The notes: generated by a model from the sequence alone, not told the origin. A DNA stretch of 32,000 nucleotides from Litchfieldella qijiaojingensis (GCF_014651875.1 NZ_BMXS01000002.1:228446-260445); one strand, 5' to 3'; positions 9,736-31,809 are shown, counted from the stretch's first letter. A program made the numbers and translations.

Positions 9736-10677
9736 GTGTCTAAATTGATGGTTTTCGCCGGGAATGCCAATCCCGAACTCGCCCGTAAGATCGCCGAAGG
9801 GTTGGACAATCGGCTCGGCCATGCCACGGTCGGTCAGTTCAGCGATGGGGAAATCGCGGTCGAGATCAACGAGAACGTGCGCGGCAAGGACGTCTTCATT
9901 CTGCAGTCCACCTGTGCGCCGACCAACGACAATCTGATGGAACTGATCCTGATGACCGATGCCCTGCGCCGGGCATCCGCCGCCCGAATCACCGCCGTGG
10001 TGCCCTATTTCGGCTATGCCCGTCAGGACCGTCGCGTACGCTCGGCCCGTGTACCGATTTCCGCCAAGGTCGTGGCCGACATGATGGTCAAGGCCGGTGT
10101 CGACCGGGTCATGACCATGGACCTGCATGCCGACCAGATTCAGGGATTCTTCGACGTGCCGGTGGACAACGTCTATGGTTCTCCGATCCTGCTCGACGAC
10201 ATCGAGCGGCAGAATTATGACGATCTGGTAGTCGTTTCCCCGGACGTCGGCGGCGTGGTGCGCGCTCGGGCCATTGCCAAGCAGCTCAACGCCGACCTCG
10301 CCATCATCGACAAGCGTCGACCGCAGGCCAACCAGGCCCAGGTGATGCACATCATCGGCGAGATCGAGGGGCGCACCTGCGTCGTAGTCGACGATATGGT
10401 CGACACAGCCGGCACCTTGTGCAAGGCCGCCGAGGCGCTCAAGGATCATGGCGCCCGTCGCGTAGTGGCCTATGCCACCCATCCGATCCTGTCCGGGCCG
10501 GCTGTCGACAACATCACTGGTTCGGTGCTCGACGAACTGGTCGTGGCCGATACCATTCCGCTGTCCGAACCGGCACGCCGCAGCGGCAAGATCCGCCAAC
10601 TTTCCGTGGCCGGGCTGATCGCCGAAGCGATCCGCCGGGTCAGCAACGAGGAGTCCGTCAGCGCGATGTTCCACTAA
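9736..10677 (+). CDS. prs: Ribose-phosphate pyrophosphokinase (PRPP synthetase)
   Basis: A GTG start at 9736 gives (M)[19 protein letters not shown], matching Prs N-termini at 313 aa. The PRPP-binding loop [12 protein letters not shown] is present. The longer track ORF from 9688 overlaps the tRNA-Gln region. Confidence 0.95.
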
Positions 10678-10792
10678 GGCCTTGCCGACAGAGAGACATC
10701 GTGCTTGGATACGCAGCCCATCAGGGCCCCGGAAACGCTATCGCTTGGTCGCGGGCGGTAGCGCTTTCCTTTATTGACCAATGAGGTTACCA

Positions 10793-11503
10793 ATGTCCGA
10801 TTACCAACTTACCGCCAACGTTCGCAAGGAGCTGGGGAAAGGTGCGAGCCGCCGCCTGCGCCGCGCGAACCAACAGGTCGCCGCCATCATCTACGGTGGC
10901 GAGAAGGCACCGCAGCCGATTACCATCGACAAGGCTGCCTTCTACAAGGCCATCGAGGACGAAGCTTTTTTCTCCTCGATCATCAATATCGATGTCGACG
11001 GCAGCAACGAACAAGTCATCGTTCGTGATCTGCAGCGTCACCCGTACAAGGCGCTGGTCACCCATGCCGACTTCATGCGGATTGACGCTACCCACGAAAT
11101 GACCCTGCACGTACCGCTCCACGTCGTGGGCGAAGAACGCTGCAAAGGCATCAAGGAACAGGGCGGCGTATTGCACGTACTGGCCAACGATATCGAAGTC
11201 AGCTGCTTGCCCAAGGACCTTCCCGAGTACCTGGAAATCGACATCACCGACCTGGGGCTCGGCGGAACCCTGCACCTATCCGACCTCAAGCTACCGGAAG
11301 GCGTGACTTCTGTGGCGCTGTCGCATGGCGAGGAGTATGACACCGGTATCGTGAACATTACGCATCCGACTCGCGGCATCGCTGAAGAGGGTGAAGAAGA
11401 AGCCGAGGCGGAAGCCAAGCCTGAAGCCGCGCCCGAGAGCGAGGCCAAGGAGCAGGAAGACCAGGAAGCCGACCAGGGCGAAGGCGAAGACAAGGCCGAA
11501 TAA
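10793..11503 (+). CDS. rplY: 50S ribosomal protein L25 / general stress protein Ctc, with acidic C-terminal tail
   Basis: The ATG at 10793 is preceded by [40 protein letters not shown] is a canonical L25/Ctc N-terminus. The position between prs and pth is conserved. Confidence 0.9.
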
Positions 11504-11541
11504 GCCAGCCTTCTTCCCGTCACGACCACCAGGACGTCAGC

Positions 11542-12132
11542 ATGAGCCACGTGAAAGCGATCATCGGTCTCGGCAACCCAGGACCGGAATACGACGACAC
11601 TCGGCACAATGCTGGCGCCTGGCTGGTCGAGACCATCGCGCGCGACAGCCATGCCCCTCTACGGCCCGAACGCAAGTTCCTGGGGCATTATGCCAAGGTG
11701 AACTTCGCTGGCGAGGATCTGCATTTGCTGCTTCCGCAGACCTTCATGAACCGTAGTGGCGGCGCTGTCGCCGCGCTTTGTCAATTCTTCAAGCTAGCCC
11801 CCGGCGAACTGCTCGTCGCTCACGATGACCTCGATATTGCCCCAGGCACGGCTCGCTACAAGCAAGGCGGCGGTCACGGCGGTCACAATGGTCTGCGCGA
11901 TATCATCCGCGCTCTCGGCAACGATAACTCCTTCCATCGCCTACGCATTGGCATCGGCCATCCTGGCGATTCCCGACAAGTCACCAATTACGTGCTTGGA
12001 CGTCCTGGCAAAGCGGAACGCGCCGCCATCGATGCTGCCTTCGCTGAGATCGAAGCCACGCTGCAGGACGCCGTTCGTGGCGACTGGGCCAAGGCGATGA
12101 ATCGGCTGCACAGCTTTTCAGCCGAAGGCTGA
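11542..12132 (+). CDS. pth: Peptidyl-tRNA hydrolase
   Basis: 196 aa. Carries GLGNPGxEYxxTRHNAG with the catalytic His, and the HDDLD and GGHGGHNGLRD motifs. Confidence 0.95.
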   Translation: MSHVKAIIGLGNPGPEYDDTRHNAGAWLVETIARDSHAPLRPERKFLGHYAKVNFAGEDLHLLLPQTFMNRSGGAVAALCQFFKLAPGELLVAHDDLDIAPGTARYKQGGGHGGHNGLRDIIRALGNDNSFHRLRIGIGHPGDSRQVTNYVLGRPGKAERAAIDAAFAEIEATLQDAVRGDWAKAMNRLHSFSAEG

Positions 12133-12149
12133 AAAGCACAGCTATAAGA

Positions 12150-12261
12150 GACGGAAGACGGAAGACGGAAGACGGAAGACGGAAGACGGAAGACGGAAGA
12201 CGGAAGACGGAAGACGGAAGACGGAAGACGGAAGACGGAAGACGGAAGACGGAAGACGGAA
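12150..12261. repeat. Perfect heptanucleotide tandem array (GACGGAA)x16
   Basis: Counted directly: 16 uninterrupted identical 7-bp units from 12150 to 12261, plus a partial GAC. The array begins 18 bp after the pth stop and ends 160 bp upstream of the ychF ATG. Confidence 0.98.
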
Positions 12262-12421
12262 GACAAGCAAAACTTCTTTTTCTTGCCCTTTCAAGATACG
12301 AAGTACCGATCTTCAACCTTCCTTCTTCAAGTCGCGAAGCGACGAACTTCTGGCTTATCGCTTTTTCCCGTAAAATACCGGCCAATCGCCAACTTCGAAC
12401 ACGCTTTCCAGGAAAGATCCC

Positions 12422-13513
12422 ATGGGTTTCAACTGCGGTATCGTCGGCCTGCCCAATGTCGGCAAGTCCACCTTGTTCAATGCACTGACCAAGTCCGGCA
12501 TCGACGCCGAGAACTTTCCGTTCTGCACCATCGAGCCCAATGTCGGCATCGTGCCGATGCCTGACCCCCGTCTCGACAAGCTGGCCGAGATCGTCAAGCC
12601 ACAAAAGGTGATCCCGACGACCATGGAGTTCGTGGATATCGCCGGACTGGTGGCCGGCGCCTCCAAAGGCGAAGGGCTGGGCAACCAGTTTCTGGCCAAT
12701 ATCCGCGAGACCGATGCCATCGCCCATGTAGTGCGCTGCTTCGACAACGACAACGTCATTCATGTCGCTAACCAGATCGACCCAAGCATCGATATCGAAA
12801 CCATCAACATGGAACTGGCCCTGGCCGATCTTGACACGGTCGAGCGTGCCATCCAGCGCCTGACCCGCGTGGTCAAGAGCGGCGACAAGGAGGCCATCGC
12901 CACCAAGGCGGTGCTCGACCGAATCCAGCCGCACCTGGCCGAGGGCCTTCCCCTGCGCAGCTTCGGCCTCTCAGACGACGAGAAGCGCCAGGTCAAGAGT
13001 TACGGCTTCCTGACCCTGAAGCCCACCATGTACATCGCCAACGTCAACGACGACGGCTTCAATGACAATCCTTATCTGGATACCGTACGCGAGATCGCCG
13101 AGCAGGAAGGCGCCGTGGTCGTCCCGGTTTGCAATCAGATCGAAGCCGAGATCGCCGAACTCGACGACGACGAGCGCGCCATGTTCCTCGAAGAACTGGG
13201 CATGGAGGAGCCGGGGCTCGATCGCGTGATCCGTGCCGGCTACAAGTTGCTTGGTTTGCAGACCTACTTCACCGCCGGGGTCAAGGAAGTGCGTGCCTGG
13301 ACGGTCAAGGTAGGTGCCACGGCGCCGGAAGCCGCGGGCGTGATTCATACCGATTTCCAGAAGGGATTCATTCGCGCCGAGGTGATCGGCTATGAGGATT
13401 TCGTCACTCTGGGTGGCGAGCAGGGTGCCAAGGACGCCGGCAAGTGGCGCCTGGAAGGAAAGGACTACGTCGTCCAGGACGGCGACGTGATCCATTTCCG
13501 CTTCAATGTCTAA
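12422..13513 (+). CDS. ychF: Ribosome-binding (redox-regulated) ATPase YchF
   Basis: 363 aa. The N-terminus [23 protein letters not shown] carries the P-loop, and the C-terminal TGS domain ends ...[15 protein letters not shown]. Confidence 0.95.
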
Positions 13514-13579
13514 GCATCGCCACGCCAACATTGAGTTGACCTTTCATGCCCTTATGGGTATGATTTGCCCCCGTTGGAC

Positions 13580-13656
13580 GGCTACGTAGCTCAGTTGGTT
13601 AGAGCACATCACTCATAATGATGGGGTCCCCTGTTCGAGTCAGGGCGTAGCCACCA
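13580..13656 (+). tRNA. tRNA-Met, elongator type (anticodon CAU)
   Basis: 77 nt: GGCTACGTAGCTCAGTTGGTTAGAGCACATCACTCATAATGATGGGGTCCCCTGTTCGAGTCAGGGCGTAGCCACCA. It is nearly identical to E. coli metT/metU through the anticodon arm. It is not the initiator type (no CGCGGGG 5' end) and not ileX-like. Confidence 0.9.
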
Positions 13657-13666
13657 GAGAATGCCG

Positions 13667-13695
13667 AACCCCGCAGGTCTGCCTGCGGGGTTTTT
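13667..13695 (+). terminator. Rho-independent terminator after tRNA-Met
   Basis: A 9-bp GC-rich stem, CCCCGCAGG (13669-13677) pairing with CCTGCGGGG (13682-13690), has loop TCTG and is followed by TTTTT (13691-13695). Confidence 0.75.
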
Positions 13696-13699
13696 GCGT

Positions 13700-13790
13700 T
13701 TCGGGCTTCGGGCTTCGGGCTTCGGGCTTCGGGCTTCGGGCTTCGGGCTTCGGGCTTCGGGCTTCGGGCTTCGGGCTTCGGGCTTCGGGC
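13700..13790. repeat. Perfect heptanucleotide tandem array (TTCGGGC)x13
   Basis: Counted directly: 13 uninterrupted identical 7-bp units from 13700 to 13790. The array starts 5 bp after the terminator T-run and sits between the convergent tRNA-Met and apeB 3' ends. Confidence 0.98.
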
Positions 13791-13854
13791 AGGATTGCCG
13801 TTGGCCCCTAGCCATCTGCAACCGCTCGTCGCTCGAAGCCCGTAGCTCGCAGCT

Positions 13855-15153
13855 TCAAACCAACTCCGTCCGATTGACGAAAGCCGTCAACGCCCGCGTC
13901 AGATAGGCGACATCCTGGCTGCCGGCGGTCTCGCGGATCGAGTGCATGCCCCACTGGGCGATCCCCACGTCCAGTGTCGGCACCCCGAGCTCGGTGGCCG
14001 TGATCGGCCCGATGGTGCTGCCACAGGCCATATCGGCACGGGTGACGAAAGTCTGCACCGGCACACCCGCTTCGCGGCACACATCGCGGAACATTGCAGA
14101 GGTGGCGCTGTTGGTGGCATAGCGCTGATTGGCGTTGACCTTGATCACAGGTCCGCCATTGATCGCCGGGCCATGGCCAGCATCGTGCTTATCGGCAAAA
14201 TTCGGGTGCAGGGCATGGGCGTTGTCGCAAGAGATCAGGCGCGAGGCCTGGATCAAACGGATGAAACTCTCCTCCCCTTCCCCACCGAGCAAAGCATTGA
14301 CACGCCGCAGCACATCGCCCAGGAATGGTCCCTGGGCCCCACAAGCACTGGCACTGCCGACTTCTTCGTGATCGTTGGCCACTAGCACTGCCCCCTGACG
14401 ACCGTCGCTCGCCAGCAGGGCTTCCAGACCAACGAAGCACGACAACAGGTTGTCCAGCCGCGCGCTGGCGATCAGTTCGCCCTCGACGCCGACTCGCGCC
14501 GGAGGCTGGGTGTCATAGAGGGCCAGCTCGAAGTCCAGAATGTCGGCCTTCTCGATATTGTGCTGCTCGTAGAGCCAGCGCTGCAGCAGTCGTTCGATAT
14601 CGCCCTTTTCTCCACCCTGCAGCAGAACCGGTGCCATCTGGGTCTGGGGGTTGATGGCACGCCCATCATTGGCTTCGCGGTCGAGGTGAATGGCGAGGCT
14701 GGGCACGATGGCAACCGGGCGCGCGACATTGAGCAGCACACCTTGCAAGCGGCCATCCTCACGGCGCAGGTGAACGCGCCCGGCCATCCCCAGATCGCGG
14801 TCGAACCAAGGCGCCAACAGTGAGCCACCATAGACTTCAACTCCAAGCTGCAGCCAGCCGCTGTTCACTTGCGCGGCGTTGGGCTTGAGCCGCAGTCCAG
14901 GGCTGTCGGTATGCGCACCGATCATGCGCAGCGCCTGCAGTCGATCATCAGGCAATTGCACGGCGACCAGTGACGAATCATTACGGGTCACATAAACTCG
15001 CTCTCCCGGCGCAAGCTTCCAGGATTGGGTCTCGTCCAAGCGACGGAATCCGGCTTGCTCGAGACGCTTGCTCATATTGGCCACAGCATGCCAGGGAGTA
15101 GGCGAGTCATGTAAAAAGCTCAGTAATCGTTCCAAAGTAGGGTCGTGGGGCAT
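13855..15153 (-). CDS. apeB: M18-family aminopeptidase (aspartyl aminopeptidase / aminopeptidase 2)
   Basis: I prefer the start at 15153 (MPHDPTLERLLSFL...), which has GAGGA 5 nt upstream. That gives 432 aa. SPTPWHAV, GAHTDSPGLRLKP, DHEEVGS and the C-terminal GxPTLDVGxxxWxMHS are M18 hallmarks. The longer ORF starting at 15189 is possible. Confidence 0.85.
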   Translation of the reverse strand: MPHDPTLERLLSFLHDSPTPWHAVANMSKRLEQAGFRRLDETQSWKLAPGERVYVTRNDSSLVAVQLPDDRLQALRMIGAHTDSPGLRLKPNAAQVNSGWLQLGVEVYGGSLLAPWFDRDLGMAGRVHLRREDGRLQGVLLNVARPVAIVPSLAIHLDREANDGRAINPQTQMAPVLLQGGEKGDIERLLQRWLYEQHNIEKADILDFELALYDTQPPARVGVEGELIASARLDNLLSCFVGLEALLASDGRQGAVLVANDHEEVGSASACGAQGPFLGDVLRRVNALLGGEGEESFIRLIQASRLISCDNAHALHPNFADKHDAGHGPAINGGPVIKVNANQRYATNSATSAMFRDVCREAGVPVQTFVTRADMACGSTIGPITATELGVPTLDVGIAQWGMHSIRETAGSQDVAYLTRALTAFVNRTELV

Positions 15154-17323: not shown

Positions 17324-19138
<1,815 letters not shown>

Positions 19139-19160
19139 ATCGGCAATTCCGCATCGTCAG

Positions 19161-22100
19161 CTACAGTGGCGTTCCTTTATCCCTGGCCATGGCATAGTGT
19201 TGAAAGGCCTGCTTGATATCCAGACGAAGCTGCTCGTCATTCCAGGGCTTGGTGAGAAACTTGTAGATCGCTCCCTCGTTGATAGCCTCAGTCACGGATT
19301 GGAGGTCCGTATAACCGGACAGCACGATGCGGATGGTATCGGGATAAAGATCCTTGACCCGGCTGAAGAATGCGGTGCCATTCATTTCCGGCATCCGCTG
19401 ATCGGAAAGTATGACCTGGACTTCATGCTTGGCCAGCAGCTCAAACGCATCATGAGCACGGCTGGCGGTAAGGATCCGATACCCTTCACGGCGTAACACG
19501 CGTGACAGTGCGCGAAGAATGTTCTCTTCGTCATCGAGCAGCAACAGAGTCTGGATGGACTCGTCACCGTCACGCCGCGGTAGCTTGACGCTCGGCGTTT
19601 CCTGATGCTGCTGGAGGTAATCCCTGAGCTTCTCCAAGGGTAATGGCTTGCTGAAGTAGTAGCCTTGATATGCATCGCACTGGCTTTTCCTTAGAAACGC
19701 AAACTGTGGCTCGGTCTCGACTCCCTCGGCAACGACTTGGAGCCCCAGATGGTGCACCATGGAAATGATGCCTTGAGTAATTGCCGCATCATGCTGATCA
19801 CGAATGATTTCCTTGATAAAAGTACGGTCGATCTTGATTTTATCGATGGGCAGCCTTTTCAAATATCCGAGACTGGAAAAGCCTGTACCGAAGTCATCGA
19901 TAGCCAGGCGGACACCAAGATTTTTCAACTCATGAAGCGTCTGTACGGCACGCTCTGCATTATCGAGAAGAATGGTTTCCGTAAGCTCTAACTCAAGGAA
20001 TTTGGCTTCGAGCTGAGTTCTTTCAAGGACTTGACGTACCAGATCGACGAAGTGGTCCCTTTGGAATTGCAGTGGAGAAATGTTGACGGCAACAGGAATA
20101 TCCACTAACCCTTGGTCGTAAAGTGACTTGATGTAGCGACAGGCAGTTTCCATCACCCAACGATTGAGCGAGAAAATCTGCCCAGTATCTTCTGCAATCG
20201 AGATGACACTGGCAGGTGAGATGAAACCAAGCTCGCTATGATGCCAGCGAAGTAGAGCTTCCATTCCTACCAAGTTCTGCCCATTAGCATCTACTTGAGG
20301 TTGAAAGTAAATTTCAAACCCACCGCATTCAATAGCTTTCTGCAACTCATTGCGAAGAGTGACTCGTTCACTGACTTGTTGGTTCAGGTCATTAGTGTAC
20401 CATTGGAAGTTATTCCTCCCCCGCTTCTTGGCCTTATACATTGCCAAGTCGGCTTGTTGAACCAAACCCAAGGGATTTTTCTCCTCACCATCACTAACGA
20501 CAATACCAGCACTCGCCGTGATTCGAAGCTCGGCATCACCGATCTGATAAGGGAGAGCGATATTCGAAAGCAACCTTTCAGTAACTTGCAGTGCATCCTC
20601 CTGGCGGAACAAATCAGGTAGTAAAACGACAAACTCATCTCCTCCTAGACGAGCCGCAGTATCACCAGGTCGAATCTGCTGTTTGAGCCGGTTAGCGACC
20701 TCGACGAGCACTTGATCTCCTGCCGCATGTCCCATGGAATCGTTGATGGGCTTGAATCCATCGAGATCCAACAAAATAACCGCCAGGCTTCGCTGATAGC
20801 GCTTCGCAAATTGACAACCCTGCACCAAACGGTCTTCAATGAGAGAGCGATTCGGAAGGCCCGTCAGAACATCATGACTGATATGGAAAGCAAGCTCCGC
20901 CTCAAAGCGTTTTTTCTCAGAGATATCGTTCAGCACACTAACATAATGAGAAACGACATCATCTTCGTCACGTACAGGCGTGATGTAAAGTTCATTCCAG
21001 AATGGAGATCCATCCTTGCGAAAATTTCGCAAGACCGTATAAATCTCTCTCTGCTCGTTCAGTCCCAGGCGGATCTGCTCTACACCAGGTTGGTGACGAT
21101 CACCAGATTGAAGAAAGCGGCAGTTCAATCCAACCACGTCTTCCGCCACATAACCAGTAATCCGTTCAAATGCGGGATTGACATAGATGAGAGGTATATC
21201 AGGTGCCAACGCATCGGCGATTGCTATCCCGTTATAGCTGGACTCGATGCTTCGCTTCAATAGGTGAAGCTGCTTTTCCGCTTCCTTCCTTTGACGGATG
21301 TCACGCAGTGAGAAAAGGAACATGGTTTCCCCATCCCATTCGGTCTGCGAGCGTTGGACCTCAACGATGACATGCCCTTCACCCTCCACGAAAACAGTCC
21401 ACTCAAAAAGACTATCATTGACTACAGGGAGCTCGAAGCACCTCTGCATCAACCTCTCTGTGGTAGACCAGAAGAGTGACACGGCTGCAGGGTTGGCATA
21501 ACGTACCAAACCTTCCGAGTCGATCACTAACAATGCATCACGGCCGTCACTAAGCAACTGATGGAAAGCTCTTTCCCGGCGTTTAGCCTCATTACTGGCT
21601 TTGATTTGTTCGGTAATATCATTCGCAAGTATCAAGCGAGCCGGTTGCTCATTGAAAACATAATCATGAGCAGTAATTTCTGCACTGACTTCACTTCCAT
21701 CTTTGCACTTGAGTACCCACACGCCCACTTTTGGCGTGGCGGAAGCACTGTCTATTTCTTGATAATGGACATGAAAACGCTGCTGCTCAGCAGGAGTGAG
21801 AAGGTCGGGAACCCGCATTCCCATGATCTCGTTGTAAGAATAACCCAGCAAGTTCAAGACGGCTCGATTTACCGCCAAGACAGCCAACGTCTCGCGGTGA
21901 TGAATGTACATGGGCTCTGGATTGGCTTCAAACAACAAGCGGTAGCGCTTTTCACTCTCGGCCAACACTTCAATGGAATGAGATCGCTCGACTGCATAAC
22001 GTATGCTACGGGCCAAAATCGAGTTGGTCATCTCTCTCTTGACCAAATAGTCTGCGGCACCGAGCTCGATGGCATTGATGTCGAGTTCATCTTCTTCCTG

Positions 22101-25770: not shown

Positions 25771-27083
25771 TCATTCATCTCGTTATCTGTCATGGAATTC
25801 AACTTGACTGGTTGCCTTATCGGCAACCAGATACAAAATCTCGTGCCTTTTCCTACCTCGCTGAATACCTTGATCCTACCATGATGCTTTTGAACGATAT
25901 TGTAGGAAAGCGCCAGACCAAGCCCTGTTCCCTTACCGACAGGTTTGGTGGTAAAGAAAGGTTCGTATATTCGATTGAGAAGCTTCGGATCTATTCCCTT
26001 TCCAGTATCCTCTATCTCGAACCATACCCATTCGCCCTCGTTTCCAGTCCGTAGGTTGATAGTGCCAAACTCCTCGATAGAATGCGCGGCATTTATCAGA
26101 AGATTCATGACCACTTGGTTGATTTGAGAGAGGATACACTCCACCTCTGGAAGCTCACCGTATTCCTTGACAATATCAGCCTTGTACTTGAGCTCGCTCT
26201 GTACCACATTAAGTGTGGTGTCGATGCCGTGATGAAGGTCGGCGAAGCGGAATTCTTCTTCATCGATATGTGAAAAATCCTTGAGTGCCGTGATGATCTT
26301 CTTCACACGTTCGAGTCCATCCTCGGACTCATTGATCAGCGATTTGATATCGCCACGAATGTAATCGTATTCCAAGGCACGTTTGAGCTGTTGCAACGCT
26401 TCGATGTCTGCCGCTTCGTCCACGGCATCGATGATACGCAAAAGGTCCTGCACATAGCCGGCCAGTGTCTTCAGGTTGGAAGACACGTAGCCTATGGGAT
26501 TGTTGATTTCGTGAGCGACGCCAGCGGCGAGCTGCCCGATGGCCGCCAGCTTTTCCGACTGCGCGAGTTGATTGTTGGCCTTTTCCAGTTTTTCGATCAA
26601 TCGATCCTGATCGACTAGTTCGTCCCTTTCGCCAGCGGACTGAATGTCCCAAACCATGTCGGTATCGTACCGGTTGCAGGCATCATCGAGCACGAGAGCG
26701 AAAAGCCCGAAATGGTCCGCGTGGAACACGGGGAATAACCGCCAGTTCAACGCTCGCACACCCTTCCCTTCCGCAGTGCCCAGAGGCATTTGGATCAGGT
26801 CGTGGGCATCGTCTTGTGCCCCAAACATGGTATTCCCTCCGAGGCAGGTCCGTTCGACCCTCTCACGCAGACCCACCACATCCGTATGGGGGAAAACATC
26901 GGCGAGAAATTGACCTTTGGCCTGCGACAAACACATGCCACTACATCGAGCGACGAAGCCATTCCAATACTCTATGCGTAACTCCTGATCGATCAGCAGC
27001 AAGCCGAGACCGACGCGGTCGGCCAACGCGGTCACGAGAGAAGGATGGAATCTATCCAAGGAACACCCCCCATGGAAATGCAA
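25767..27083 (-). CDS. Soluble PAS-domain histidine kinase (438 aa)
   Basis: The N-terminal ~140 aa are PAS-like (GLLLIDQELRIEYWNGFVARCSGM...). H-box QLAAGVAHEINNPIGYVSSNL, N-box NLLINAAHS, G1 EDTGKGI, FEPFFTTKPVGKGTGLGLA. No TM segment. This is the first gene of the low-GC operon. Confidence 0.85.
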   Translation of the reverse strand: MHFHGGCSLDRFHPSLVTALADRVGLGLLLIDQELRIEYWNGFVARCSGMCLSQAKGQFLADVFPHTDVVGLRERVERTCLGGNTMFGAQDDAHDLIQMPLGTAEGKGVRALNWRLFPVFHADHFGLFALVLDDACNRYDTDMVWDIQSAGERDELVDQDRLIEKLEKANNQLAQSEKLAAIGQLAAGVAHEINNPIGYVSSNLKTLAGYVQDLLRIIDAVDEAADIEALQQLKRALEYDYIRGDIKSLINESEDGLERVKKIITALKDFSHIDEEEFRFADLHHGIDTTLNVVQSELKYKADIVKEYGELPEVECILSQINQVVMNLLINAAHSIEEFGTINLRTGNEGEWVWFEIEDTGKGIDPKLLNRIYEPFFTTKPVGKGTGLGLALSYNIVQKHHGRIKVFSEVGKGTRFCIWLPIRQPVKLNSMTDNEMNE

Positions 27084-27527
27084 CGAAGCGTGTGGATGTC
27101 AGTGACCTTGTGCTCATGTCTTGCTATCACTCGGGGCCGAATGGACGAAGACCGGCGGGGGCAGGCCGAGACTTGCGGCAAACCACTGGAGGCGTTCGGG
27201 TACGATCAAAGCGGTTGACTGTCACCCCCGGCGCATACGTTGGATACCTTATAGGGACTATCGGCCGCCCCCCTGGAACCTTGAGGGAAAAATCAGACTC
27301 GTCGGCCTGCGCACGCTTATTCGCCTGGGGGGCATCAATTCAGGTCTGGAACCAGCCACGCTCACAACCACTTACCAAGTACCATGATCCAGGCCAGCAA
27401 GGCGCCAAACGGTGATACGCATCCGGCATCAGGGGTCGCCTCCAGGAGAGACACAAGGCCCATGCAGTCGTCGAGGCAGCCTTCTTCCTTCTACGTTACC
27501 ATTGGCTTCGAAACCAAGGGAGCCTTT

Positions 27528-27893
27528 ATGCGTATCAAAGGATTTGTGGTAATGCTGCTTGCCTTCTCGGTAGCGAGTTGCAGTGATGGACAGCCCGACT
27601 GGATGAAGGCGGCACTGGATGACGATGTGGATCAGACGCGTTGGGAAGCGTCGTCACTGGAGGCGAAGGTGGCGACGGCAGGCCTATGGTTGCAGCGCTT
27701 GAACGATGACGGATACCTTTCACTTGATAAGCCGGAAGTCGAGATGGAGCCTGAGGCAAGCGCACTGACCGCCTGTATCGACTCGTCGCTAGAAGACGCA
27801 ACTGCCGAATCGGCAACTGGCGTACGCCTGGCAGCGGCGGATTGTGTTCATGAATTGGGGTATGCGAAGCGAGCAGACGAGCTCGTGGATTGA
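27528..27893 (+). CDS. Small putative lipoprotein (121 aa), function unknown
   Basis: The ATG at 27528 has AAGGGAG 5 nt upstream. The signal peptide and lipobox read MRIKGFVVMLLAFSVASC. The mature part is acidic. The longer track ORF from 27384 lacks an RBS and adds a non-hydrophobic leader. Confidence 0.6.
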   Translation: MRIKGFVVMLLAFSVASCSDGQPDWMKAALDDDVDQTRWEASSLEAKVATAGLWLQRLNDDGYLSLDKPEVEMEPEASALTACIDSSLEDATAESATGVRLAAADCVHELGYAKRADELVD

Positions 27894-28225
27894 CACACTA
27901 CGGCGTGTTTGATCATTTGCCAGGCAGTGGCAAGCCGCTGCAGTTGGATGATGACAGCATGGTTCCTGAGCAACTGCGGGCCGGTTACCGGCTGCTGAAA
28001 ATTGCCGGCTATATGCCTCCGAAGTTAGAGTTGGTACACGAAATCCGCGAGGTGGAAAGTCTGATTGCTCGTCTGGATCAGGGCGAGGAGCGGGAACAGG
28101 CCTGCGCCCGTCTCAATCTGTTACGTGCCCGTTTACAGGCACAGGGGCATGACCTGAGCCTATCGCGGGAGCGAGGCGAATATCGAGCAAAGCTGATTCA
28201 ACGACGGCCATCTACCACGATCTAG
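27890..28225 (+). CDS. DUF1992 (DnaJC28-like) domain protein, apparently N-terminally short
   Basis: FDHLPGSGKPLQLDDDSMVPEQLRAGYRLLKIAGYMPPKLELVHEI matches the DUF1992 core (F.nLpG.GkPL...aYriLknaGy.Ppel). The only available start is TTG at 27890, overlapping the upstream TGA. The frame is closed by TGA at 27851, and no ATG or GTG lies in between. Confidence 0.55.
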   Translation: MTHYGVFDHLPGSGKPLQLDDDSMVPEQLRAGYRLLKIAGYMPPKLELVHEIREVESLIARLDQGEEREQACARLNLLRARLQAQGHDLSLSRERGEYRAKLIQRRPSTTI

Positions 28226-29368: not shown

Positions 29369-29444
<76 letters not shown>

Positions 29445-29479
29445 ATGACACAAAGGCTAGCAGCACAGGCGGCGAAGAG

Positions 29480-29555
29480 TGGCTCCCCGAGCAGGACTCG
29501 AACCTGCGACCCAATGATTAACAGTCATTTGCTCTACCAACTGAGCTATCGGGGA
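29480..29555 (-). tRNA. tRNA-Asn (anticodon GUU)
   Basis: 76 nt, with the same cloverleaf as above and an encoded CCA. Identical to the copy at 29602-29677. Confidence 0.9.
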
Positions 29556-29601
29556 ATCGCCTGTCACGGTGTTCGCGAGGCCGAATTCGGCGATGTCGTA
29601 T

Positions 29602-29677
29602 TGGCTCCCCGAGCAGGACTCGAACCTGCGACCCAATGATTAACAGTCATTTGCTCTACCAACTGAGCTATCGGGGA
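29602..29677 (-). tRNA. tRNA-Asn (anticodon GUU)
   Basis: 76 nt, identical to the copy at 29480-29555. It is the first Asn gene downstream of the candidate promoter. Confidence 0.9.
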
Positions 29678-29698
29678 ACGACCCGGAACACGCGACGT

Positions 29699-29726
29699 AG
29701 TATACGGATCACCTCGTGAACGTCAA
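29699..29726 (-). promoter_or_regulatory. Candidate sigma70 promoter for the tRNA-Asn array
   Basis: The minus strand reads TTGACG (29726..29721), a 16-nt spacer, then TATACT (29704..29699), then the GC-rich discriminator ACGTCGCG. The -10 hexamer ends 21 nt before the mature tRNA 5' end. This is a motif match only. Confidence 0.45.
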
Positions 29727-29832
29727 GCCGACATTGCGATTGACGACCACAAGTCATTATCCCAAGGGGAAAAAGCGCCTGTAAACGCAACGCGCCCGCC
29801 TAGTGAAACCAGGCGGGCGCGTCGGATTCGGC

Positions 29833-29909
29833 TGGTGGCTACGCCCTGATTCGAACAGGGGACCCCATCATTATGAGTGATGTGCTCTAACCGGCTGAGC
29901 TACGTAGCC
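29833..29909 (-). tRNA. tRNA-Met, elongator type (anticodon CAU), second copy
   Basis: The reverse complement is GGCTACGTAGCTCAGCCGGTTAGAGCACATCACTCATAATGATGGGGTCCCCTGTTCGAATCAGGGCGTAGCCACCA. It differs from the 13580-13656 copy at 3 positions: D-loop TT>CC and T-loop G>A. Confidence 0.9.
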
Positions 29910-29962
29910 AATCGGCGGCGGAAACTCTCCGGATGTCCGGGGAGGGCCGGCAACGGGTGCGC

Positions 29963-29991
29963 ATTATGCACGCGGCCCTGCCCCATGGCAA
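29963..29991 (-). promoter_or_regulatory. Candidate sigma70 promoter for the tRNA-Met/Asn operon
   Basis: The minus strand reads TTGCCA (29991..29986), a 17-nt spacer, then CATAAT (29968..29963), then a GCGC discriminator, about 53 nt upstream of tRNA-Met. It is embedded in an imperfect inverted repeat (GGGGAGGGCCG 29939-29949 / CGGCCCTGCCCC 29973-29984). That repeat could instead be the terminator of the upstream binding-protein gene. Confidence 0.4.
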
Positions 29992-30008
29992 GCCCGACTT
30001 ATGCCCAC

Positions 30009-30968
30009 TCAGCCCTCGATGTCCAGCGCTACCTTGACCGCCTCGAGGCCATTCTTGCCATCTACGGTGGCGACACCATCAAGCCACTCGGCAAGCACCT
30101 CGGGGTTGTCTTGCAGGTAGGCTCGCGCCGCATCACGCGGATCCTCGCCCTCGTCCATGATCGCGCTCATCAGCTGGTTTTCCATTTCCAGTGTGAACTC
30201 CAGATTCTCGAGCAGCGCCCCTACGTTGGCGCACTCGTCGACATAACCGGCACGCGTGTTGGTATAGACTGTCGCGCCCCCCAAGTCAGGCCCGAAGTAA
30301 TCATCAGCGCCTTCCAGATAAGCCATGTCGAAGTTGGTGTTCATCGGATGAGGCTCCCAACCGAGAAACACCATCCACTCCTCGCTCTGCATCTTGGAGC
30401 GCAGTTCGGCCAGCATGCCAGCCTCGCTGGAATCGATCAGACGCCAGTCGCTGAGGCCAAAGGCATCGTCATCGATCATATCCTGGATGATCATGTTGCC
30501 GTCATTACCAGCCTCGATACCATATAGGCGGCGGTCGAAACGCTCGGCATGCTCAGCCAGGTCTTCCACCGAGGTCACGCCGGCGTCATACACGTACTGC
30601 GGCACGGCCAAAGTGTACTTGGCGCCATGCAGGTTGGCGGCAACCCGATCGACATCCCCCTGTTCGATATAGGGATCGCTGATCGATGCCATCGAAGGCA
30701 TCCAATTACCCAGGAAGATATCAAAGTCCTGATTACGCAGTCCCGAATAGGCGATGGGCACAGAGACCGTATCGGTCCGGGTATCATAGCCAAGCGCCTC
30801 GAGCACTTCGCTGGTTAGCGCAGTGGTCGCCGTGATATCGGTCCAGCCCACTTCGGCGAAACGGACCGACTGACAACTCTCGGGCTCCTGCGCCATCAGC
30901 GGCGCCGCGCCAAGCGCCATGGCTCCCGCACCCAGCAGCGATATGGACATTTTCAGTGTCTTACTCAT
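30009..30968 (-). CDS. Periplasmic choline/glycine-betaine binding protein of an ABC transporter (OpuAC/ChoX-like)
   Basis: The ATG at 30968 has AGAGGA 6 nt upstream. The signal peptide is MSKTLKMSISLLGAGAMALGAAPLMA. WTDITATTA, NWMP and GWEPHPMN are aromatic-box-type motifs of the OpuAC family. The gene is divergent from betI. Confidence 0.85.
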   Translation of the reverse strand: MSKTLKMSISLLGAGAMALGAAPLMAQEPESCQSVRFAEVGWTDITATTALTSEVLEALGYDTRTDTVSVPIAYSGLRNQDFDIFLGNWMPSMASISDPYIEQGDVDRVAANLHGAKYTLAVPQYVYDAGVTSVEDLAEHAERFDRRLYGIEAGNDGNMIIQDMIDDDAFGLSDWRLIDSSEAGMLAELRSKMQSEEWMVFLGWEPHPMNTNFDMAYLEGADDYFGPDLGGATVYTNTRAGYVDECANVGALLENLEFTLEMENQLMSAIMDEGEDPRDAARAYLQDNPEVLAEWLDGVATVDGKNGLEAVKVALDIEG

Positions 30969-31089
30969 CGGTTCCTCTCTCTTGTTGAACATCCCTCGAG
31001 ACAGGCCATCACACCTGACAGCAGCCTCACTGATAGCCCCAATTTATATATGATCCACCATCTCATAGGATGGCGTAGTGTTTTTATTG

Positions 31090-31103
31090 ATTGAACGTTC
31101 AAT
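31090..31103. promoter_or_regulatory. Perfect 14-bp palindrome ATTGAACGTTCAAT, candidate BetI operator
   Basis: Read directly. It sits in an AT-rich stretch (TTTTTATTGATTGAACGTTCAATAAAAAAG), about midway between the divergent binding-protein start (30968) and the betI start (31219). It resembles the TTGA..TCAA-type BetI boxes I recall. Confidence 0.55.
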
Positions 31104-31218
31104 AAAAAAGATCCATACTATTCACCATAGATGATCTCGTGGCGTCTGGCCAGGCTTGCACCATGACCAACGTACATGCCCACGGCCAAGCACGCCACTT
31201 GTAGAGGAGACAGGACCG

Positions 31219-31809
31219 GTGCCCAAGCTCGGAATGGAACCCATTCGCCGCCGCCAGTTGATCAAGGCGACCATGGAGGCCATCGACGACGTCGGCCTGG
31301 CCGATGCCACCGTGATTCGCATCGCTCGTCGCGCCGGCGTATCCGCAGGCATCATCAGCCATTACTTCGGGGGCAAGGATGGGCTGCTGGAAGCCACCAT
31401 GCGCCAAATCCTCAGTGATCTCGGCCAAGCGGTGGCCCGCCGCCGTCAGGCGCTGCCGACCGATGAGCCACGCGAACATCTGCGAGCCATCATCGACGGC
31501 AACTTCGACCGCAGCCAGGTCAGCCAGTCGGTAATGAAGACCTGGCTGGCATTCTGGGCCAGCAGCATGCACAAGCTCAATCTCCAGCGCCTGCAGCACG
31601 TCAATGACAGAAGGCTGTACTCCAATCTATGCCATCAGTTCCGGCATTGCCTGCCCAAGGAAGAGGCACGGCGGGCGGCCCGCGGTCTGGCGGCCATGAT
31701 CGACGGCCTTTGGTTGCGTGGTGCCCTGGCGCCGGAAGGCCTGGATGTCGACCGCGCGCGCCTGCTCGCCTACGACTACCTCGACGAACAACTGGCTCGC
31801 GCGAACTGA
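31219..31809 (+). CDS. betI: TetR-family choline-responsive repressor BetI
   Basis: A GTG start at 31219 follows GAGGAG. (M)[61 protein letters not shown] is nearly collinear with E. coli BetI ([26 protein letters not shown]...). [12 protein letters not shown] and [10 protein letters not shown] are also conserved. Confidence 0.9.

Follow-up and report, generated by a model that had tools for sequence, protein, structure and literature searches.

By what route are the G proteins of bacteria joined to phosphorelays? In eukaryotes, small GTPases of the Ras type are central switches, and to our knowledge those of bacteria are understood in two settings only, the MglA/MglB polarity system and, partly, the actinobacterial conservons. 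The question is raised afresh by a locus of Litchfieldella qijiaojingensis (formerly Halomonas), positions 19161-27083 on the minus strand of a 32,000-nt stretch of DNA (the window), which a first-pass annotation had described as an operon linking an MglA-type GTPase to two-component and cyclic di-GMP (c-di-GMP) genes. We find one conserved, translationally coupled cassette, as that annotation proposed, of which the window carries a trimmed copy and not the archetype. The family of every part is already known; what we did not find described in the searchable literature is the widespread GTPase-kinase(-ATPase) cassette, for which we infer a mechanism and of which the window is a reduced example. 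The cassette appears to tie an MglA-type GTPase, lacking MglB, to a dedicated kinase, and most carriers add an apparently receiver-gated ATPase of the pilus/secretion type, a predicted blue-light sensor and c-di-GMP enzymes.

Five long open reading frames (ORFs) make up the locus, all on the minus strand, in the order histidine kinase 1 (HK1, a PAS kinase), a response regulator (RR) built of receiver (REC) and HD_5 domains, a 222-aa GTPase, histidine kinase 2 (HK2) and a 1069-aa REC-PAS-LOV-GGDEF-EAL-REC enzyme. HK1 occupies 25767-27083 as a maximal ORF starting with TTG at 27083, and overlaps the RR gene (24433-25770) by 4 nt (ATGA, 25767-25770). A spacer of 128 bp (24305-24432) precedes the GTPase gene (23636-24304), which in turn shares 8 nt (ATGAGTAA, 23636-23643) with the gene for HK2 (22516-23643, 375 aa). 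The 145-bp gap that follows (22371-22515) contains a 35-codon ORF (22371-22475), the TAG of which abuts the ATG of the enzyme gene (19161-22370). This layout, with its spacing and overlaps, reproduces the first-pass coordinates exactly, and the domains assigned there agree with our Pfam and NCBIfam runs. The GTPase (222 aa) and HK2 (375 aa) are identical to L. qijiaojingensis proteins held at NCBI. All five products appear soluble, as had been supposed, because the mean over a 19-aa Kyte-Doolittle window never exceeds 1.27; none has a hydrophobic segment long enough to span a membrane.

The assignment of the GTPase is secure. Although Pfam returns only a weak Arf match, a phmmer search against proteins of solved structure gave MglA of Myxococcus xanthus at 3e-39 and that of Thermus thermophilus at 8e-38, with the next family at 3e-3. 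The AlphaFold model (pTM 0.78) was matched by Foldseek to MglA chains at all of ranks 1 to 14 (TM-scores 0.81-0.86), followed by Ras/Rab proteins at about 0.65, and identity to M. xanthus MglA is around 46% across residues 6-153. The nucleotide-binding motifs lie in order along the minus strand. The P-loop, GPAMSGKTT (24224-24250), fits GxxxxGK[ST]; DRTLFFD (24131-24151) contains D52-R53-T54 and so places an arginine finger beside the G2 Thr; the G3 motif TVPGQ (24059-24073, T78-V-P-G-Q82) has Thr where Ras has Asp; and NKRD (23873-23884, N141-K-R-D144) is a G4 motif of the form [NT]KxD. Across 35 homologues the last three motifs (D52-R53-T54, T78-V-P-G-Q82 and N141-K-R-D144) are invariant, as are G19, P20, S23, G24, K25, T26 and T27 of the P-loop. 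An intrinsic Arg adjacent to the G2 Thr, TVPGQ and NKRD are the criteria for Group 1 MglA (Wuichet & Sogaard-Andersen 2014, PMC4316618). The protein is therefore a true MglA-family member of the Group-1 type, and its placement inside the MglA/Ras superfamily by the first-pass annotation holds.

The C-terminus of the protein carries a helical extension of about 30 residues, and the P-loop has Ala at the position of Ras G12 and MglA G21. This Ala21 is found in 35/35 cassette GTPases; the corresponding M. xanthus sequence reads GPGLCGKTT. By analogy with the well-established Ras G12 and MglA G21V substitutions, Ala21 may slow GTP hydrolysis or free it from dependence on a GTPase-activating protein (GAP). 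A cognate MglB is encoded within about four genes in 390/449 MglA homologues (PMC4316618). We found no Roadblock/LC7 (Robl_LC7) match by Pfam in any ORF scanned across the window, in line with the earlier remark that nothing MglB-like is encoded there, nor in the Pfam-annotated neighbourhoods of loci L001-L005, L088 and L089. Within the window and these neighbourhoods the GTPase is thus an "orphan" MglA.

The closest partner of the GTPase is HK2. Pfam recognises HisKA and HATPase_c domains in this kinase (H-box AHEVNTP, 23155-23175, minus strand) and no known sensor domain. In an AlphaFold2 model (pLDDT 80) residues 1-105 form an alpha-beta3-helix domain, that is, a helix, three strands and a long helix running into a coiled coil. 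Foldseek, run with this N-terminal domain against the PDB, found no match with E under 0.09 and no Roadblock protein, and a profile search of PDB sequences gave a chance match only. We considered that the domain might be a fused MglB/Roadblock module and rejected this, as neither the fold search nor the sequence search of the PDB connected it to Roadblock proteins. A homology search begun from the N-terminal fragment alone likewise recovered nothing; the full-length query worked. A profile of the domain matches 81 of 1.84e9 representative proteins, always at the N-terminus and in proteins of about 365-425 residues. Three contigs from these matches have some sequence upstream of the kinase, and two of the three encode an Arf-like GTPase of 214-222 residues directly before the kinase and have a large gene after it; the third gave no information, and on the contig of a fourth match the upstream sequence was too short. 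Conversely, when loci are found through the GTPase, the start of the kinase gene overlaps the GTPase stop by 8 nt in 42/58 loci and by 14 nt in 9/58. This reciprocal domain link and the conserved overlap are the best available evidence that GTPase and HK2 work as a pair, whichever direction the signal takes. The conserved adjacency, the overlap and the N-terminal domain specific to this kinase family are also consistent with the idea that a GTP/GDP switch gates phosphotransfer.

Is this arrangement peculiar to one genome? A GTPase-relative scan with one genome per species yielded at least 592 stretches, and the best 80 of these, together with five loci from metagenomes, were annotated by comparison with reference proteins; in the gene-order counts the denominators are loci with enough flanking DNA. 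A histidine kinase lies directly 3′ of the GTPase gene in 75/80 loci, so that the neighbourhood is conserved well beyond L. qijiaojingensis. In 66/70 the kinase is followed by an ATPase of about 747 residues with REC, MshEN and T2SSE domains (PilB/GspE/MshE-like), and in 54/85 a gene for a REC-only protein of 174-196 residues sits directly upstream of the GTPase. Dozens of genera share this gene order. They range from Gamma- and Betaproteobacteria to the Desulfobacterales and their relatives (formerly Deltaproteobacteria), and the four-gene core is already present in one of the latter, the sulfate reducer Desulfoluna limicola. The ancient core consists of the REC-only protein, the MglA-type GTPase, the sensor-less histidine kinase and the REC-MshEN-T2SSE ATPase. 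In Pseudomonas, Stutzerimonas, Marinobacter and Halomonadaceae this core is extended upstream by a PAS kinase and a REC-HD_5 regulator, and downstream by a large PAS/GAF kinase, a single-domain receiver and the REC-PAS-LOV-GGDEF-EAL-REC enzyme. The orthologue of this enzyme closes the cassette in nearly all gammaproteobacterial loci. No description of the cassette was found in the searchable full texts or in the supplement of PMC4316618, where the neighbourhoods of Group 1 MglA proteins are said to "vary widely" and the focus is on members coupled to MglB; the first-pass annotation, too, knew of no characterised example.

The ATPase of the relatives deserves comment. In three of them its gene lies at 9817-12063 (L004), 9802-12045 (L002) and 11802-14054 (L006), with MshEN called by Pfam. 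The strict c-di-GMP-binding motif (RLGxxLLxxGLLxxxxLxxxLxxQ) occurs in 0/72 of the ATPases, and the gammaproteobacterial clade has QLA in place of RLG; we therefore do not claim that the ATPase binds c-di-GMP. The Walker A string GPTGSGKTT is exact in 60/72, and was missed in L. rifensis. The Pfam-annotated neighbourhoods that carry the ATPase (Pseudomonas, Marinobacter and Desulfoluna loci) contain no pilin, platform or secretin genes.

Measured against the extended cassette, the window retains five of nine genes, namely HK1, RR, GTPase, HK2 and the LOV-GGDEF-EAL enzyme, and lacks the ATPase, the REC-only gene, the large PAS kinase and its receiver. It has the GTPase followed by a kinase with the family-specific N-terminal domain; it has neither the ATPase after the kinase nor the REC-only gene before the GTPase. 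With four genes missing, the window is a reduced derivative, an incomplete member of the cassette family. Four of the 70 loci have no ATPase, namely the window, that of L. anticariensis and those of the two remotest relatives.

The loss of the ATPase can be traced in the 145-bp gap. In the closest relative, L. rifensis (GTPase 80% and GGDEF-EAL enzyme 84% identical), the ATPase gene stands between HK2 and the enzyme gene. The gap aligns with this locus in two pieces, one corresponding to the leader and start of the L. rifensis ATPase gene and the other to the sequence just past its stop, including a conserved element upstream of the GGDEF-EAL start. We conclude from this alignment that 22371-22515 is the scar of an ATPase gene deletion. 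A tblastn search for a remnant pseudogene of the ATPase gave receiver cross-matches only. The 35-codon ORF (22371-22475), which the first-pass annotation listed as a mini-ORF beside the five long genes, lies within the scar and is in another frame or absent in L. anticariensis and L. rifensis; we reject it as a gene. L. anticariensis has kept the same five genes. Its scar is shorter (83 bp) and the species is more distant from the window than is L. rifensis, so the ATPase has probably been lost twice, independently. A hairpin with an 8-bp stem (22386-22409) lies about 15 nt 5′ of the enzyme start, within an element partly conserved in L. rifensis (L006) and L. anticariensis (L014), and might influence translation initiation.

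The REC-only gene, too, is replaced by a spacer, the one of 128 bp, which stands in its place in all five Halomonadaceae loci. That of the window has a conserved AAGAGG resembling a ribosome-binding site and an ATG (24417-24419) that opens a 26-codon frame (24339-24419, minus strand). The AAGAGG, the ATG and an open frame of 26-38 codons that nearly reaches the GTPase start occur in all five spacers when these are aligned, and the peptide is not conserved. The frame may be a relic of the start of the lost REC-only gene, or a device that holds ribosomes on the message, a translational relay.

What could the five remaining proteins do? The enzyme at the end of the cassette has, by Pfam and NCBIfam, the order REC, PAS, PAS/LOV, GGDEF, EAL, REC, with GGDEF and EAL scored at 2e-47 and 6.5e-76. 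The GGDEF motif (20631-20645), its RxxD I-site (RPGD, 20661-20672), EALLRW (20244-20261), DDFGTG (19881-19898), EGVE (19716-19727) and QGYYF are all present, and the C-terminal receiver contains LSDQRMP (19389-19409); these and the following features are on the minus strand. The LOV domain (20886-21278) has the cysteine motif NCRFLQ (21108-21125, residues 416-421), matches solved short-LOV proteins in the PDB at E=5.6e-37, with the LOV-GGDEF cyclase 8c05 also among the best matches, and keeps the flavin-adduct Cys in 39/43 orthologues. Given the similarity of the core and the presence of the Cys, it is predicted to be a blue-light photosensor. In the N-terminal receiver the phosphoacceptor is replaced by Gly (DLVLIGYRL, residues 56-64, 22179-22205), as the first-pass label "REC*" implied. 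The replacement is confined to the window, however: every orthologue found by tblastn has Asp, and the degenerate receiver is hence specific to the L. qijiaojingensis genome and no property of the enzyme family. The difference is a single base, GAC to GGC, for which a real change and a sequencing error are indistinguishable, and it accompanies the disappearance of both the large PAS kinase and the receiver belonging to it.

HK1 contains PAS_4, HisKA and HATPase_c domains by Pfam and is cytoplasmic, with the H-box AHEINNP at 26496-26516 (minus strand). Its orthologues in Pseudomonas and Halomonadaceae are 57-73% identical, and the alignment with them begins at 27059, which suggests that the real start is near this position rather than at the TTG at 27083. 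The NCBIfam model NF038348 ("T2SS_HK") matches it with 350 bits, under the cut-off of 450. A DUF6901 protein (228-235 aa) is encoded divergently upstream of HK1 in L001-L005 and in many Pseudomonas and Marinobacter loci; it is absent from the window.

The RR protein combines Response_reg with HD_5 (1.2e-40 across residues 191-358). Its acceptor Asp is retained (ISDARMP, 25576-25596, minus strand). Degeneracy of the HD-GYP domain, claimed previously, was borne out: the HD dyad is replaced by YN (25042-25059) and HHExxDGxGYP by HHQERWNGSGFP (24862-24897). These degenerate motifs are kept clade-wide in Pseudomonas, Marinobacter and Halomonas, which speaks for a maintained pseudo-enzyme and not for decay. 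More distant gamma- and betaproteobacterial loci (L056, L059, L065, L067 and L068) encode REC-HD_5 regulators with intact HD and HHE..DG.GYP, which makes the dead HD-GYP domain a derived trait confined to the clade of Pseudomonas, Marinobacter and Halomonas. The RR also matches NCBIfam NF053512 ("NosR family") with 571 bits (cut-off 400), residues 13-436 aligning with model positions 1-422. NosR of Burkholderia pseudomallei is a REC-degenerate-HD-GYP regulator proposed, like HnoD, to act on other c-di-GMP enzymes (PMC12570481). No FIST (NosP) domain was found in any window product scanned, and the RR is partnered here with a PAS kinase. The receivers found in the RR, at the enzyme C-terminus, in the relatives' ATPase and in the REC-only protein are paralogues (about 40-49% identity, with a shared KPW[DN]D), and HK1 and HK2 have almost the same H-box; a branched or shared phosphotransfer is therefore plausible.

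All five genes are under purifying selection. Compared with L. rifensis and L. anticariensis, nonsynonymous divergence (dN) is 0.07-0.22 while synonymous divergence (dS) is saturated. Combining this with the identities of the parts, the conservation of their order, the translational coupling and the loss of parts, we favour, at about even confidence, a mechanism in which a horizontally acquired and reduced cassette encodes a cytoplasmic phosphorelay: the GTPase acts on HK2 as a regulator and the dead HD-GYP receiver protein on the GGDEF-EAL enzyme as a modulator, with c-di-GMP as the output. GTPase and HK2 would be synthesised in constant proportion and would associate with each other. The HK2 N-terminal domain would read the GTP/GDP state of the GTPase, which would serve as the kinase input, a role also proposed in the actinobacterial G-protein systems. 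HK1, through its PAS input, and HK2 would phosphorylate the paralogous receivers of the RR and of the enzyme C-terminus. The RR, unable to hydrolyse c-di-GMP, would become a phosphorylation-dependent allosteric partner of the enzyme, the part also proposed for HnoD and NosR. Blue light would enter through the LOV domain, and the net output would be altered c-di-GMP. In the relatives the signal would also converge on the REC-gated T2SSE ATPase, a branch that has been deleted in the window.

Several points weigh against this proposal. Contact between GTPase and HK2 is itself inferred, and the GTPase could be an output instead of an input. With Ala invariant at the position of Ras G12, GTP cycling may be slow or unusual. 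The net activity of the enzyme, cyclase or phosphodiesterase, is not readable from its sequence. Sigma-70-like promoter sites are no more frequent than in shuffled sequence, and although terminator-like sites are commoner than in shuffles (16 vs 7.1), none delimits the cassette; a single transcript is neither supported nor delimited by a promoter-like or terminator-like site. Finally, the window is without two of the four core genes and without the acceptor Asp of the N-terminal receiver, so its wiring may differ from that of the full cassette or be partly defunct.

The opposite polarity, in which the GTPase is the output of the phosphorelay, we consider rather unlikely. Phosphorylated receivers (in relatives the REC-only protein, which would resemble RomR) would load or localise the GTPase, and its GTP form would act on a motor or ATPase. 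In relatives this target would be the neighbouring T2SSE ATPase, and in the window some component of a pilus, secretion system or flagellum that is encoded at an unlinked site. MglA controls type IV pilus polarity, and the catalytic residues of MglA, R53 and Q82, are kept. The gene order of the relatives fits as well, with the REC-only gene immediately upstream of the GTPase (54/85 loci) and the ATPase two genes downstream (66/70), and in M. xanthus MglA is regulated by a receiver protein, RomR (PMC4316618). Yet the window has lost the REC-only protein as well as the ATPase and still keeps the GTPase-HK2 pair under purifying selection, and no link of the GTPase is tighter or better conserved than the one to the kinase, through the 8-nt overlap and the kinase-specific N-terminal domain.

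Loss of so many parts might instead mean that the cassette of the window is a functionless remnant, decaying since the ATPase output and other partners disappeared. The four missing genes, the Gly found uniquely in the N-terminal receiver and the foreign composition of the inserted block would all be in keeping with this. A remnant would nonetheless be hard to reconcile with five intact ORFs, preserved catalytic motifs and a dN much lower than dS in the comparison with each sister species, also in the one where neither side has the ATPase. Moreover, L. anticariensis lost the ATPase independently and kept the same five genes, which argues for this set being a viable unit; decay we judge improbable. 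Mere co-location of independent signalling genes, with the GTPase functionally unlinked to its neighbours, is harder still to credit. Signalling genes are abundant and often clustered, and the promoter and terminator evidence does not define an operon; against this stand an order and start/stop overlaps conserved from Gamma- and Betaproteobacteria to Desulfobacterales and relatives, and a reciprocal search from the HK2 N-terminal domain that recovers the adjoining GTPase. We give co-location hardly any credence.

The preferred mechanism, with the GTPase as kinase input, can be set beside known systems. With MglA/MglB of M. xanthus and T. thermophilus the cassette GTPase shares the G-domain fold, the Arg beside the G2 Thr, TVPGQ, NKRD, a link to receiver-domain proteins and, in relatives, one to a PilB/GspE-type ATPase. 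It differs in having no MglB nearby, Ala for Gly21 and the C-terminal extension of about 30 residues; it is also hard-wired to a histidine kinase by the 8-nt overlap, and its partner genes are adjacent, whereas those of M. xanthus are unlinked. The actinobacterial conservons CvnA-D (PMC13343842, PMC4316618) likewise place an MglA-family GTPase and a histidine kinase in one operon, the kinase can lack a sensory domain, and the GTPase is believed to belong to the signalling path of the kinase. The cassette, in contrast, has no Roadblock protein (CvnB) and no CvnC; its GTPase belongs to Group 1 (Arg finger, TVPGQ) and that of the conservons to Group 2 (GTPGQ, no Arg); it adds response regulators, c-di-GMP enzymes and the T2SSE ATPase; and it occurs in proteobacteria, not Actinomycetota. 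It is thus an analogue of the conservon systems and not a member. In the H-NOX/HnoK-HnoB-HnoD and NosP-NosK-NosR networks (Plate & Marletta 2012, cited in PMC12570481) a kinase phosphorylates a REC-degenerate HD-GYP protein thought to modulate a true c-di-GMP enzyme, as would the RR here. The cassette lacks H-NOX and NosP/FIST, has YN...GFP where NosR has HG...GTP, contains two kinases and a GTPase, and has a LOV-GGDEF-EAL-REC protein as the partner enzyme. As with the MshEN ATPases of the MshE/PilB type, relatives encode, beside c-di-GMP enzymes, a homologue of the T2SSE hexameric ATPases in which Pfam recognises MshEN; theirs has an extra N-terminal receiver and never the strict binding motif (0/72), and it is absent from the window. 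The LOV core with its photoactive Cys is shared with LOV cyclases, LOV phosphodiesterases and the short-LOV proteins of Pseudomonas; here it is embedded between PAS domains, flanked by two receivers and placed within a GTPase/kinase cassette.

A broader proposal is more tentative, and we hold it as possible, if doubtful. Many proteobacteria may possess a "G-protein two-component system" in which an MglA paralogue that does without MglB, and that has Ala at the G12 position and a helical extension at its C-terminus, is the nucleotide-sensing regulatory subunit of a dedicated histidine kinase. Through this kinase, GTP state, light and c-di-GMP would all be coupled to a receiver-gated ATPase resembling PilB/GspE; this would be the proteobacterial counterpart of the actinobacterial G-protein systems. 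If so, the window shows that, once the ATPase is lost, GTPase and kinase can be redirected as a pair to an output of c-di-GMP alone. Carriers include culturable and genetically tractable Pseudomonas, Stutzerimonas, Marinobacter and Halomonadaceae, so that a link between G protein and two-component system is directly testable. The window and L. anticariensis are natural "ATPase-minus" variants; set against L. rifensis, they could allow the two branches, that of c-di-GMP and that of the ATPase, to be told apart.

Where the cassette came from is suggested by its composition. A block of low GC content (19140-27100 in the composition profile) has the same extent as the cassette, with values of 0.48-0.53 (about 0.50) against 0.58-0.65 (about 0.61) in the flanks and a sharp boundary. 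In L. rifensis and L. anticariensis, too, the cassette stands out in this way from its surroundings, but the flanks are unrelated in each Litchfieldella species. The low-GC block and the non-syntenic flanks point to horizontal acquisition of the cassette within the Halomonadaceae. We found no direct repeats, att-like sites or integrase bounding the block. A search of the leader and spacers for riboswitches or other known RNAs gave nothing, the sole matches being tRNAs at 29.4-29.9 kb.

To the left of the cassette lie housekeeping genes (hemA-prfA-prmC, lolB-ispE-tRNA-Gln-prs-rplY-pth-ychF-tRNA-Met, an M18 peptidase gene, prc and ligB). To the right are small unknown ORFs, a metallophosphatase gene, three tRNA-Asn, a tRNA-Met, and OpuAC and BetI genes; the OpuAC/tRNA-Met flank (29833-31784) is shared with Vreelandella nanhaiensis (L010), a relative of lower GC content. 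The tRNA array (29369-29909) comprises three tRNA-Asn(GTT) and one tRNA-Met(CAT), with a second copy of tRNA-Met 16 kb away (13580-13656). Two of the tRNA-Asn copies also lie under a sub-threshold match to Rfam YrlA (Y RNA-like; 42 bits, gathering score 69), which is probably an artefact of tRNA likeness. Two small ORFs on the plus strand (27384-28225) separate the cassette from the metallophosphatase gene. That of 169 aa has no family match, and that of 111 aa gives a weak match to NCBIfam PRK10203 "hypothetical protein" (88 bits vs a cut-off of 155). Their composition is host-like, so both are probably outside the island. On the other side, a gene for a ligB-type NAD-dependent DNA ligase (17324-19138, plus strand; NCBIfam 721 bits) is a maximal ORF from a GTG abutting the prc stop. 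The LigB model match starts only at residue 48, and the real start is therefore probably downstream of this GTG. The ligB stop (19138) is 22 nt from the stop of the convergent GGDEF-EAL enzyme gene (19161).

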